A stretch of 30,013 nt of DNA from Patescibacteria group bacterium (GCA_018895125.1 JAHIOR010000032.1:1-30013); one strand, 5' to 3'; positions 17,201 through 20,707 are shown, counted from the first letter of the stretch. Notes: a model not told the origin generated them from the letters alone. Made by a program: numbers and translations.

Positions 17201-17911
17201 ATGGCAGTTCTATATATCGTTGCTACTCCTATTGGTAATCTTCAAGATATCAGCTCCCGCGCCATTGAGGTATTGAAGGGAGTTGATTTGATTTTAGCTG
17301 AAGATACCAGGGTTACAAAAAAGCTTTTGGCTCGCTATCAAATCAGAACCAAAACAATCAGCTATCATCAACATAGCCGTTTGGAAAAAATAGATTATTT
17401 TCTAGATTTATTGAAAAGAGGAAAAGATTTAGCCTTGGTTTCAGATGCTGGCACGCCCGGGGTTTCTGATCCCGGCAACATGCTGATAAAAAAAGTGGTT
17501 GAGGTTTTAGGAGATAAAATAGTTTTTATTCCTATTCCTGGCCCTTCGGCATTGGCAGCCGCAGCCAGCATTTCTGGTTTTCCAATGGAAAGATTTTTAT
17601 TCTTGGGCTTTCCCCCGCAAAAGAAAAAAAGAAAAAGATTCTTTGAAGAAATTATTGCCTCAAAATATCCAGTAATTTTTTACGAATCCCGTTACCGGCT
17701 TTTAAAAACCCTAGAGGAGTTGAATAGTATACTAAATACCAAATACCAAATACTAAATACTCGTTTGGTGATTTGCCAGGAGCTGACAAAAATGTTCGAA
17801 AAAACTTATCGAGGGACAATTTCAGAAGTTCTTGATAAAATAAAAGACCAGGATTTAAGAGGAGAGTTCGTGATCATTCTTAGCAATCAAAAAGTTAGAA
17901 AAGATGAGTAA
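17201..17911 (+). CDS. rsmI: 16S rRNA C1402 2'-O-methyltransferase
   Basis: LYIVATPIGNLQDIS.RA, AEDTR, ALVSDAGTPGVSDPG, IPGPSA, YES, ELTK..E, RGEFVII. Confidence 0.96.
   Translation: MAVLYIVATPIGNLQDISSRAIEVLKGVDLILAEDTRVTKKLLARYQIRTKTISYHQHSRLEKIDYFLDLLKRGKDLALVSDAGTPGVSDPGNMLIKKVVEVLGDKIVFIPIPGPSALAAAASISGFPMERFLFLGFPPQKKKRKRFFEEIIASKYPVIFYESRYRLLKTLEELNSILNTKYQILNTRLVICQELTKMFEKTYRGTISEVLDKIKDQDLRGEFVIILSNQKVRKDE
17729..17760 (+). repeat. Intragenic heptamer array (AATACYA)n encoding ILNTKYQILNT
   Basis: ATACTAAATACCAAATACCAAATACTAAATAC; 30/32 identical to 20315-20346. Confidence 0.9.
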
Positions 17912-19469
17912 ATTTTATATCACCGCTGCTATACCCTATGTTAATGCTAAGCCCCATTGCGGCCACGTTTTAGAATTTGTCCAAGTAGATGCGCTTAAAA
18001 GGTATCACCAACTCTTAGGCGAGGAATCATTGTCTCTTTCCGGGGGTGACGAAAATGCTTTGAAGAACGTCCAGGCGGCGGAGAAATCTGGTCGGCCGCT
18101 CAAAGAATTCATTGACGAAAACACGGAAGCTTTCCGGCAACTAGCGATAAAGTTAAACGGCGGATTTGATGTTTGGCAAAGGGGCAGCGACCAGAAACAT
18201 CATTTTCCTTCCAGCCAGAAACTTTGGAAACTCTGCGCCCAAAACGGGGATATCTATAAGAAACCGTATAAAGGGCTTTATTGCGTCGGCTGCGAGGCTT
18301 TTTACACCCGCGAGGAGTTGAACGAAAACGGAGAGTGTTTTGAGCATAGTGGCAAGAAACTTGAAGAAATACAAGAAGAAAATTACTTTTTTGCTCTTTC
18401 AAAATATCAAGATAAGATTATTCAGATTATTGAGGATGGAACTTTTAAGATTGTACCCGAGTTCAGAAAAAACGAAGTTTTAAGTTTTCTCAAAGGCGGG
18501 TTGGTTGATATTTCTATTTCCAGATCGAATGAACGAGCTAAGAATTGGGGCGTGCCCGTGCCGAATGATTCAACACAAAGAATTTATGTTTGGTTTGATG
18601 CTTTGAATATTTATCAAAGCGGCATTGGTTTTGGTTGGGATGAAGAAACGTATAAAAAATGGTGGCCGGCAGATCTTCATATTATTGGCAAGGGAATAAG
18701 CAGGTTTCACGCTATTTACTGGCCAGCTTTTCTTCTTTCGGCCGGGCTTTCTCTGCCTAAGGAACTTTTAGTTCATGGTTATTTGACAGTTGACGGTAAA
18801 AAGATAAGCAAGTCTGATCCTTCGACGATTATAGATCCTGTTCCGATCATTGAAAAATATGGCGTTGACGTTATCCGATATTATCTTTTAGCTAAGGTTT
18901 CTCCTTTTGAAGATGGAGATTTTTCCGAAAGCAAACTAGCAGAGGTTTATAATGCGGATTTAGCCAATGGCTTGGGAAATCTAGTATCTAGGGTTTTAAC
19001 CATGGTGGAAAACTATTGTGAAGGAAAAGTTCCTGAGATTTCTCAAGACCCAGACAGCCATCCTTTAAGAATTGACGAGAATATTTACAACTGGAAAAAA
19101 GCTTGGGTTGACATTGATAAAAACATGGAGGATTTCCACTTTAATGATGCTTTAGCTTCTGTTTGGCGCTTTATCAGCGAAGCGGATAAATATATCGATA
19201 TTCACAAACCATGGGAAATGGCAAAACAGGGCAAAACAGAAGAGCTAAATTGGGTCTTATACGGGCTTTTGGATTCCTTGCATCAGGTTGCCTGGCAGAT
19301 TTATCCTTTTTTACCCGAGACCAGTCAGAAAATAGCTAAGTCTTTAGGGATTAAAGGATTATTAGTTGAAAACCCTTTAAGTAAAAACAGCTGGGTTAAT
19401 ATCAAGTCTGGAACAGCGATTAAGAAGCCAGCTGCGCTTTTTCCCAAGATTGAAGACAAAATCGCTTGA
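17904..19469 (+). CDS. metG: Methionyl-tRNA synthetase (short form without C-terminal tRNA-binding domain)
   Basis: FYITAAIPYVNAKPHCGH, YCVGCE, SISR...WGVPVP, YVWFDAL, IGKGI.RFHAIYWP, KISKS, N.LANGLGNLVSR. Confidence 0.96.
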   Translation: MSKFYITAAIPYVNAKPHCGHVLEFVQVDALKRYHQLLGEESLSLSGGDENALKNVQAAEKSGRPLKEFIDENTEAFRQLAIKLNGGFDVWQRGSDQKHHFPSSQKLWKLCAQNGDIYKKPYKGLYCVGCEAFYTREELNENGECFEHSGKKLEEIQEENYFFALSKYQDKIIQIIEDGTFKIVPEFRKNEVLSFLKGGLVDISISRSNERAKNWGVPVPNDSTQRIYVWFDALNIYQSGIGFGWDEETYKKWWPADLHIIGKGISRFHAIYWPAFLLSAGLSLPKELLVHGYLTVDGKKISKSDPSTIIDPVPIIEKYGVDVIRYYLLAKVSPFEDGDFSESKLAEVYNADLANGLGNLVSRVLTMVENYCEGKVPEISQDPDSHPLRIDENIYNWKKAWVDIDKNMEDFHFNDALASVWRFISEADKYIDIHKPWEMAKQGKTEELNWVLYGLLDSLHQVAWQIYPFLPETSQKIAKSLGIKGLLVENPLSKNSWVNIKSGTAIKKPAALFPKIEDKIA

Positions 19470-19578
19470 CAAGTTAGCTTACTTTTATTCTTTTGGCTTG
19501 AATATTGGCCATCAGCGCGGTGGTCAATCTCAGGTCAAAAAGACCCGAGCCGTTCTTTATACAAAAAGGAGAAAAGCG

Positions 19579-19722
19579 ATGAAAGATCTCTCAAAACTTA
19601 GTTTTAGTGAGCTCCAAGAACTGTTTCTGGAGCTCTCCGAAAAAAAAGAGCTAAACCAAAAAAAGAAAGATCTTTTGGCGCGTGTTCGCGCTGAACTTCA
19701 GCGTATCGCGGATACGCATTAA
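19579..19722 (+). CDS. Small 47-aa helical protein MKDLSKLSFSELQELFLELSEKKELNQKKKDLLARVRAELQRIADTH
   Basis: AAGGAG SD 7 nt before the ATG at 19579 and a terminator just downstream. The track start at 19450 (TTG inside metG) is unlikely. Confidence 0.6.
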   Translation: MKDLSKLSFSELQELFLELSEKKELNQKKKDLLARVRAELQRIADTH

Positions 19723-19729
19723 TGTATTG

Positions 19730-19763
19730 GGGCTCGTGAGAAGATTCGCGAGCCCTTCTTTTT
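19730..19763 (+). terminator. Intrinsic terminator
   Basis: GGGCTCGTGA-gaagat-TCGCGAGCCC (10 bp, one G:U) followed by TTCTTTTT. Confidence 0.85.
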
Positions 19764-19819
19764 AATCGATTAAAATTAGTTTTTAACAGTACAACTTCAT
19801 AAATTTTAATCTAAATATA

Positions 19820-20707
19820 ATGATTATCGATACCCATTGCCATTTGAATTTTAACGCTTTTAAAAACGACATTGATCAAGTTATCAGCCGGTCTTTAGCT
19901 GATAATGTTTGGATAATTAATGTTGGCTCTCAACTGGAAACGAGCAAAAAAGCGGTAGATCTTGCGGAAAAATATCCCCAGGGCGTTTTTGCCTCAGTTG
20001 GTTTACATCCGATCCATGTTACCGGCCATCTAATGAAAAAAGGACTGGATGCGGAAGAATTGGCGGCTCAAGAGAAAATAGGGGAGTTTGATATTGATGA
20101 GTATAGGCAGCTTGTTCTAAATTCGCCAAAAGGGAAAATCGTCGCTATCGGCGAAATCGGCCTGGACTATTACTGGAAACCAAAATCAAAAGCAAAGTTA
20201 GAAGAATTCAAGCAGCTTCAAGAAAAGGCATTGTTGGCGCAAATAGATTTAGCTAAAGAGTTAAACCTACCAGTGATTTTTCATTGCCGCTCCGCCCACG
20301 ATAATCTTATAGAAATACTAAATACCAGATACAAAATACTAAATACAAGCTTGCACGGAGTGATCCATTGTTTTACGGGAAATATAGAACAAATGCAACA
20401 ATATTTGGATATCGGGTTATATCTGGGCTTTAACGGAATTATTTTTAAGCAGATTGCGGGAATTAACTGGCAGGAAATTATTTCAAACACGCCCTTGGAT
20501 AGAATTTTGGTAGAAACCGACGCCCCTTATTTAATTCCTCCAATCAGCGAAGATCAGCATTTGGATCAGCGTCAATCAGCGAACCCGCGGAACGAACCTT
20601 TGTTCGTGAAGCGGGTTGTTCAGGAAATTGCGAAAATCAAAAAATTAAGCTATCAAGAAGTATTAGAAATTACGGTTCAGAACGCCAGAAAACTTTTCAA
20701 AATATGA
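19820..20707 (+). CDS. tatD: TatD family nuclease/hydrolase
   Basis: IDTHCHL, VGLHP, AIGEIGLDYY, IFHCR, GVIHCF, LVETDAPYL, N.R.LF. Confidence 0.95.
   Translation: MIIDTHCHLNFNAFKNDIDQVISRSLADNVWIINVGSQLETSKKAVDLAEKYPQGVFASVGLHPIHVTGHLMKKGLDAEELAAQEKIGEFDIDEYRQLVLNSPKGKIVAIGEIGLDYYWKPKSKAKLEEFKQLQEKALLAQIDLAKELNLPVIFHCRSAHDNLIEILNTRYKILNTSLHGVIHCFTGNIEQMQQYLDIGLYLGFNGIIFKQIAGINWQEIISNTPLDRILVETDAPYLIPPISEDQHLDQRQSANPRNEPLFVKRVVQEIAKIKKLSYQEVLEITVQNARKLFKI
20315..20346 (+). repeat. Second intragenic heptamer array encoding ILNTRYKILNT
   Basis: ATACTAAATACCAGATACAAAATACTAAATAC. Confidence 0.9.
20543..20581 (+). repeat. Four ATCAGC units at 10/12/10-nt spacing inside tatD
   Basis: ATCAGC at 20543, 20553, 20565 and 20575; encodes ISEDQHLDQRQSA. 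Confidence 0.75.

Follow-up and report, generated by a model that had tools for sequence, protein, structure and literature searches.

The window analysed here is a stretch of 30,013 nucleotides (nt) from a Patescibacteria group bacterium (GCA_018895125.1, JAHIOR010000032.1:1-30013). This study concerns two short heptanucleotide repeat arrays which lie in frame inside two unrelated housekeeping genes of the window, and their relation to small cassettes built around a 23S_rRNA_IVP (S23p) gene (Pfam: PF05635). The first array (17729-17761, plus strand) is made of 4.7 units of AAATACY and encodes ILNTKYQILNT, residues 177-187 of the 16S rRNA C1402 2'-O-methyltransferase RsmI. The rsmI gene occupies positions 17201-17911 on the plus strand and matches TIGR00096 with 236.9 bits, above the cut-off, as well as PF00590. 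The second array (20313-20347, plus strand) is made of five units of the RATACN family and encodes (E)ILNTRYKILNT, residues 165-176 of a TatD/YchF-family metal-dependent hydrolase, whose gene is found at 19820-20707 on the plus strand (TIGR00010 with 222.5 bits, above the cut-off; PF01026 with an E-value of 8e-71). The two arrays have the same orientation and are 2.6 kb apart with metG in between, and there is no open reading frame (ORF) within or between them which could be their cassette gene.

The initial annotation, which was made from the sequence of the window alone, had described these arrays as 30/32 identical, read in the same frame and hosted by RsmI and TatD. A pattern search, Tandem Repeats Finder (TRF), ORF translation and the profile matches given above all agree with this description. 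The 32-nt pattern is present exactly twice in the window, at 17729-17760 without mismatches and at 20315-20346 with two mismatches, where none is expected from 100 shuffles. TRF calls a period of 7 at 17729-17761 with 4.7 copies and at 20313-20346 with 4.9 copies, with 92% and 81% matches respectively, so both arrays are imperfect. Each of them is enclosed by a single uninterrupted long ORF. A pure AAATACT array in the frame of the host would read K-Y-stop-I-L-N-T with a TAA stop codon. This codon is CAA in the RsmI copy and AAA in the TatD copy, and therefore the stop is evaded through two distinct substitutions.

The AlphaFold models of both proteins, built on orthologue alignments, place the two peptides at the end of a helix and in the following loop, in line with the loop position that had been proposed from the sequence. 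In RsmI the residues 177-187 form the end of the helix 167-182 and the loop preceding the strand 188-194. In TatD the residues 165-176 form the end of the helix 160-169 and a loop of lower confidence (predicted local distance difference test, pLDDT, about 69), which precedes the strand 180-182.

Several related genomes were compared with the genome of the window, which is referred to as G000 (0.63 Mb in 90 contigs, 38.8% GC, 90% complete, from groundwater). G001, a near-complete sister genome of 849 kb in 5 contigs, was examined whole and has both arrays at the same codons as G000; its RsmI array is identical. In G003 the TatD array is found at the orthologous site and the RsmI array is absent. 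Moreover, a contig (X2) from an independent sample and an independent study matches 17654-17907 with 0 differences and spans the RsmI array. Because of this contig and because sister genomes carry the arrays, the window arrays are not mis-assemblies. The TatD array is spanned only by a contig from the likely source sample, among the contigs of four metagenome runs. No indels or alternative joints were seen at either array in these contigs, in which rare length variants are not visible. Other contigs of the same metagenomes share the array alone and then diverge, indicating that the array is present in further contexts there.

Heptamer arrays are strongly enriched in these genomes. Arrays were called with a period of 7 and at least 3.5 copies, and the expected number was taken from third-order Markov simulations. 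There are 26 such arrays in G000, compared to about 1.4 in the simulations, and no other period reaches more than 10. In G001 there are 83, compared to about 1.6 in the simulations, with at most 16 for each of the other periods. As a pattern, the RATACN family gives 106 matches in G001, 63 in G004 and 38 in G003, and at most 11 in the controls. A census of the RATACN family in G001, counting arrays with at least three NRATACN units, gave 42 arrays, of which 24 lie in sense and 3 in antisense orientation inside ORFs, 11 are intergenic and 4 are at ORF edges. Exactly five units are found in 23 out of the 42 arrays and none of them has more than five. At the level of sequence, the window arrays are thereby shown to be members of a dispersed RATACN heptamer family of the genus.

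The initial annotation had proposed a short repeat family which colonises coding loops, and the genome search substantiates both parts of this proposal with a third copy in G000, in addition to the 42 arrays in G001, and with 21 internal arrays in G001 that are in sense orientation and in frame in housekeeping genes. The hosts in G001 include Mfd, a PHP/PolX-like protein, DnaX, RsmH, PCMT, KsgA, the CCA-adding enzyme, LigA, RecG and Mur ligases. For most of the array-bearing genes of G001, the orthologous gene of G000 shows either a gap or a loop without repeats at the array site, and only the RsmI and TatD arrays are common to both genomes. Besides the window pair, in-frame arrays of G000 are found in two Mur ligases, a radical-SAM protein and a CDC48-like ATPase. 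One of the Mur ligases carries a perfect 4.3-unit TTGGTAC (AAGTACC) array in frame (KYQVPSTKYQ) inside its Mur_ligase_M domain (G000:C87:6913-6942), and its G001 orthologue has AGATACC units at the array site. The array in this Mur ligase is the only one seen here which looks prone to slippage.

The third AAATACW array of G000 lies upstream of fmt, where it makes up the right arm of an inverted pair (G000:C41:6177-6256). This pair, with TAGTATC units followed by AATACWA units, occupies the entire 82-nt spacer between the stop codon of a 154-amino-acid ORF without assigned identity and the GTG start codon of fmt, and folds with a minimum free energy of -19 kcal/mol. The G001 counterpart of the spacer is 17 nt long and has no array. 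Together with the arrays that are filled in G001 and empty in G000, this hairpin means that filled and empty sites are found in both directions. The intergenic copies of G001 are mostly inverted pairs as well and thus hairpins. In addition, composite in-frame inserts, in which a GC-rich palindromic module is located between two arrays, are present in the G001 genes for KsgA, RsmH, the CCA-adding enzyme, the PHP/PolX-like protein and Mfd (G001, listed together: C5:48580-48760, C3:158800-158920, C5:62800-62910, C1:89130-89240, C1:37590-37700). The composites in RsmH and KsgA share a near-identical module encoding PSTSSGLSR. No target-site duplication was evident when filled and empty sites of G000 and G001 were compared, with the junctions being blurred at about 70-75% nucleotide identity.

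A possible source of the arrays was found around the genes with a 23S_rRNA_IVP domain. The suggestion in the initial annotation to look at neighbouring genes for four-helix-bundle proteins became the key lead, as arrays proved to be the arms of S23p/IVP cassettes. All four PF05635 genes of G001 and one in G000 (G000:C16) are bracketed by inverted period-7 arrays at a distance of less than 100 nt, and each array pair has its own unit. Arrays at both ends are found for only 4 out of the 889 ORFs of G001, of which 3 are IVP genes. In G003 and G004 the arms of the IVP genes are RATAC arrays. The TatD array of the window is identical at 34 out of 35 positions to the right arm of the IVP cassette in G003 (L137:877-911), including the order of the unit variants. 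Furthermore, the IVP arms of G009 match the dominant family of that genome, AACTACY, and the IVP arms of G000 match its commonest family, AATTTCT, which is found at five loci. The window arrays are not cassettes by the definition of a PF05635 ORF between inverted terminal repeats, yet they share the arm sequence with one, and in this respect the TatD and RsmI arrays are shown to have the sequence of cassette arms.

One orthologous intergenic site holds the IVP cassettes of G001, G003 and G004 with differing arms. At the same site G000 (C7:8722-8865) has only a gene-less hairpin of 42 nt with two GAATTAC-like units per arm, which may be a remnant after gene loss. The arm length of the cassettes is not strictly fixed, as the right arm of one IVP cassette in G001 (C4:55692-55813) has 17 GTTAGTT-like units compared to the usual 4-5. 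The association between IVP genes and heptamer arrays extends across phyla. Among 75 IVP loci with both flanks, retrieved with a five-member IVP alignment, a period-7 array is located upstream in 43, downstream in 48 and on both sides in 33, compared to 2-3 in the distal windows used as control. In 32 of the 33 two-sided pairs the arrays are inverted. The nearest solved structure to the IVP protein encoded at L137:546-860 in G003 is PDB 2GSC from Xanthomonas campestris (E-value 2.6e-23), with five chains in the entry. Convergent heptamer arrays are known to be abundant in X. campestris itself, with 70 inverted pairs (PMC4692102).

The identity of the RsmI array in G000 and G001 can be traced to an exchange of the 3' end of rsmI. 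A tract on the plus strand at 17705-17911, which starts about 22 nt upstream of the array and runs to the stop codon, is 92-98% identical to G001 against a background of 70-80%. In the 5' two-thirds of the gene, G000 is 80% identical to G003 and 73% to G001. From the start of the tract on, G000 is 94% identical to G001 and 68% to G003, synonymous sites included. A tree of two genes groups G000 with G003 and G001 with G004. Since the 3' tract contradicts both this tree and the 5' identities, the array-bearing 3' end of rsmI is shown to have been exchanged between lineages by homologous recombination. The recombination accounts for the identical array in G000 and G001 and for its absence from G003. 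A second rsmI mosaic was observed between G002 and G005 (L012, L007), with a 3' part of 88% and a 5' part of 72% identity, and suggests that recombination at the 3' end of rsmI may be recurrent. Whether the RsmI and TatD arrays of G000 have undergone gene conversion with each other was considered as well. Three of the four differences between the TatD arrays of G000 and G001 bring G000 nearer to the RsmI array, which are too few sites to claim it.

The arrays carry marks of selection on the translated product. Among the sense coding arrays, a T at position 7 of the unit is found in 3 of 26 cases at the codon phase where TAA or TAG would arise, compared to 15 of 29 and 23 of 36 at the other two phases and 39 of 65 in intergenic arrays (Fisher p = 2e-5). 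The internal arrays of G001 are oriented in sense in 21 cases and in antisense in 3. The peptides encoded in sense are hydrophilic with a hydropathy of about -0.7 to -1.5, whereas the antisense ones reach about +0.9 to +1.8, and one of the three antisense arrays, with their hydrophobic peptides, sits in a membrane protein. The depletion of the stop-making T only at the stop phase and the predominance of the hydrophilic sense orientation show that the arrays are translated and filtered by selection. As a pattern, the retained copies have a length which is a multiple of three, are free of stop codons, lie in the hydrophilic sense orientation and occupy tolerant helix-end or loop positions. In RsmI and TatD the additional residues most probably are neutral passengers that play no functional part in the enzymes.

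How many residues the arrays have added was assessed from the orthologues. Most RsmI orthologues have a loop that is exactly 7 residues (21 nt) shorter, and the peptide is not a conserved motif among them. In both genes the first 1-1.5 units coincide with native I-(I/L)-N-(D/T)-like codons, which in the orthologues read (E)IL(K/N)T in TatD and E(I/L)(I/L)N(D/Q) in the RsmI of other genera. The net gain is therefore about 7 residues, or about three units, and not 11. The claim of the initial annotation that the repeat adds new peptide holds with this qualification on the number of residues.

In other genomes of the order, arrays made of different units are found in these very RsmI and TatD loops, and many orthologues are free of repeats. 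The TatD arrays of other genera also begin on the native codons, with a unit that resembles them. The loop units are KTCTAGC in G004 (8 matches in the genome, 0 in the control), CAATCAT in G010 (29 and 4), AACTACY in G009 (45 and 0) and CTAAATT in G012 (18 and 2). Each of these four families is dispersed in its own genome and was not found in the other genomes tested. For G023 the loop unit AGTTATA occurs at only 2 loci of the genome. The unit TTMAAGT of G040 was excluded as a family of its own genome, as its 17 matches compare with 21 in the reversed-pattern control. Different units and repeat-free loops at the same positions mean that the loop sites persist while their contents turn over, which points to either strongly preferred targets or places where old arrays have been rewritten.

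Taken together, we consider it probable that the window arrays are gene-less solo copies of the arms of IVP/S23p cassettes, about 35 nt and five units long, which were placed by templated copying, spread by recombination and filtered by selection. The source would be a small selfish cassette of this genus, whose inverted arms are five-unit arrays of about 35 nt and whose gene encodes a four-helix-bundle 23S_rRNA_IVP/S23p protein related to Avd, the accessory protein of diversity-generating retroelements (DGRs). Arms without the gene are also present, either singly, or paired as inverted hairpins that fill intergenic spacers, or combined with GC-rich palindromic modules into composites. Their arrival at a new site may occur by templated copying, for example by ectopic gene conversion or template switching, and such copying could be seeded at sites with a native similarity to one or two units, such as the I-(I/L)-N-(D/T) codons of RsmI and TatD. 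A filled allele then passes with its flanks among related species via ordinary homologous recombination, as seen for rsmI, and selection retains only the tolerable copies. Any role of the IVP protein in the spread of the arrays is one that we infer.

Several observations weigh against an origin from cassette arms. We know of no transposition intermediate, target-site duplication or enzyme activity for these arrays, and the copying step is likewise something we infer. The resemblance of the native codons to the unit at both window sites would also fit an expansion in place. Several G001 arrays substitute for a G000 loop of similar length and add no length, which old arrays being rewritten or decaying would explain as well as new insertion. 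Lastly, none of the IVP genes found in G000, which is 90% complete in 90 contigs, or in G001, the genome richest in RATACN arrays, has RATACY arms, so neither genome provides an example of the arrays together with a cognate cassette.

The main alternative is that slippage expanded a native 7-nt proto-unit at each locus separately, and that RsmI and TatD look alike through their similar native codons I-L-N-T. We regard this as unlikely; for individual sites, expansion in place from proto-units remains a real rival. It would explain why the first units lie on conserved native codons, why TatD arrays of other genera start on the same codons with a similar unit, and why the RsmI loop is exactly 7 residues above the commonest short form. 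At one Mur-ligase site, moreover, there are four AGATACC units in G001 and just one in G000. However, the 42 G001 loci in unrelated genes and spacers share the unit, and some of the empty counterparts in G000, e.g. those in DnaX, PCMT and RsmH, have no similar native sequence. The agreement of the TatD array with the G003 arm in the order of unit variants also argues against separate origins, as do the absence of a tail beyond five units in G001 and the frameshift that slippage by a single unit would cause in the host genes. Another reading is a contingency switch, in which 7-nt slippage toggles rsmI and tatD off and on by phase variation. Simple repeats that cause frameshifts classically have a unit length not divisible by three, and the perfect array in the G000 Mur ligase would suit such a design. 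Such a switch is highly improbable, given that the window arrays are imperfect, that G000 and G001 have equal unit numbers with no indels in the contigs of the four runs (in which rare variants are hidden), and that the hosts are housekeeping genes and not surface or restriction genes.

Mobilisation of the arrays as elements resembling repetitive extragenic palindromic (REP) sequences or miniature inverted-repeat transposable elements, driven in trans by a tyrosine HUH transposase (Y1, similar to the REP-associated tyrosine transposases, RAYTs), seems to us quite unlikely. Genes with a Y1_Tnp domain (Pfam: PF01797) above the cut-off do exist in five out of five genomes (two in G000, four in G001, one in G003, seven in G004 and three in G010), and the intergenic hairpins resemble REP doublets. 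Nevertheless, none of the four Y1 genes of G001 is flanked by heptamer arrays and IVP is the only class which is systematically flanked; furthermore there is no GTAG-type REP head, and many of the copies are intragenic. The Y1_Tnp genes (RAYT/IS200-like) encode about 240 amino acids and are present in 1-7 copies per genome of 0.5-0.8 Mb, e.g. at G000:C89:6662-6982 and G000:C70:3356-3598. It is also hard to credit that RsmI and TatD acquired the peptide convergently under selection for a function, such as that of a binding or localisation tag. In favour of this, G000 and G001 show unusual conservation of the DNA surrounding the RsmI array, and both peptides lengthen a helix in the AlphaFold models. 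Yet the conservation of rsmI is that of a 200-nt recombination tract including synonymous sites, and the peptide is absent in most orthologues, replaced by unrelated repeat peptides in others and found with the same cycle in at least 20 unrelated G001 proteins. A mechanism by a DGR-like reverse transcriptase was rejected, as G004 alone gave an RVT_1 match, whereas none was found in G000, G003, G009 or G001, the genome with the largest number of arrays.

Beyond the origin of the window arrays from cassette arms, the IVP/S23p proteins could be the trans-acting partners of widespread mini-elements with heptamer arms. Each paralogue would recognise its own 7-nt unit and thereby generate the excess of heptamers in bacteria, including the short tandemly repeated repetitive (STRR) sequences, GGGAATC and others, and repeatedly rewrite tolerant loops of essential proteins and rRNAs. 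We put this forward tentatively and think it possible rather than likely. As arrays peak at exactly five units and the 2GSC entry has five chains, IVP proteins may act as pentamers which read about five units.

Two further features were noted in and next to the tatD gene. At 20545-20585 the gene has a second repeat-like insertion, in which the word ATCAGCG recurs every 10-12 nt or so and which encodes roughly ISEDQHLDQRQSA in a low-confidence region of the model. This insertion is common to G001 and G004 and is absent in most orthologues. Between metG and tatD there is an ORF of 90 amino acids (19450-19722) with no Pfam match.

To our knowledge, S23p/IVP proteins are common and their function has remained unexplained since the 1990s. 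The locus and its relatives tie this puzzle to that of the heptamer repeat excess. They give a lead on the origin of the bacterial heptamer repeats and make it a testable question whether heptamer arrays are bound or mobilised by the IVP protein of their own cassette. They also point to a route by which ultra-small genomes could gain loop residues in essential enzymes, with such inserts crossing species by recombination. In the literature searched we found no paper which combines heptanucleotide repeats with the Candidate Phyla Radiation (CPR) or Patescibacteria, none on in-frame heptamer arrays or heptamer-armed S23p cassettes in CPR bacteria, and no statement of a general rule of heptamer arms around IVP genes.

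The initial annotation had compared the arrays with the STRR sequences of cyanobacteria and with the Rickettsia palindromic elements (RPEs). Both analogies concern the behaviour of the arrays and do not in themselves speak for membership in either family. Over-represented heptamers have been recognised in bacteria ever since the STRR sequences were described and have turned up in later genome surveys, such as GGGAATC in Xanthomonas and GGGGAYT in Nostoc (PMC4692102) and TAACTGA in Beggiatoaceae (PMC4679880), with no mechanism given. Like these and the STRR sequences, the arrays described here are dispersed tandem 7-nt units with few copies per site, often in convergent inverted pairs and often immediately upstream of start codons. 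Unlike them, about half of the family lies inside housekeeping enzymes, whereas a mainly intergenic location has been reported for the known repeats, with a peripheral position if they fall within ORFs. The host is not a cyanobacterium either but a CPR-like groundwater bacterium with the small genome described above, and the units are AAATACY. RPEs are selfish repeats which insert in frame in conserved genes and add surface peptide without loss of function (PMC10969869). They share the in-frame insertion in conserved genes with the window arrays and differ in being palindromic, about 100-150 bp long and without a known gene cassette, whereas the window arrays are 33-35 nt long, tandem and not palindromic alone.

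In REP sequences, bacterial interspersed mosaic elements (BIMEs) and REPINs, short hairpin-forming repeats are present in multiple copies and the RAYT transposase gene is flanked by inverted copies of its own repeat. This layout of a master and its satellites resembles that of the IVP cassettes and their gene-less arms. Here, however, the flanked gene does not encode an HUH transposase but a four-helix-bundle protein without a known catalytic motif; its arms consist of tandem heptamers, and copies are intragenic. PF05635 proteins (PDB 2GSC) are homologous to the DGR accessory protein Avd (PDB 4DWL) (PMC10053308), so the cassette gene agrees with Avd in fold and family. With no reverse transcriptase found in G000, G001, G003 and G009 and no pair of template and variable repeats seen, these are not canonical DGRs. 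The remaining comparison is with the IVS/S23p elements, i.e. the intervening sequences (IVSs) of rRNA genes. The IVS in the 23S rRNA of Coxiella burnetii is a selfish S23p element bounded by terminal inverted repeats, and its GACAGAT heptamers vary in number among strains (PMC4990558), and IVP ORFs have been reported within rRNA-gene insertions of CPR bacteria (10.1101/2024.02.27.582315). The window arrays differ from these elements in that they have no ORF, are single arms, lie in protein-coding genes and not in a helix of the 23S or 16S rRNA, are open for translation and would not be excised by RNase III. In both systems, a PF05635 four-helix-bundle ORF lies between terminal inverted repeats, which here are the inverted heptamer arrays that bracket the IVP genes, and both lodge in tolerant loops of essential genes.

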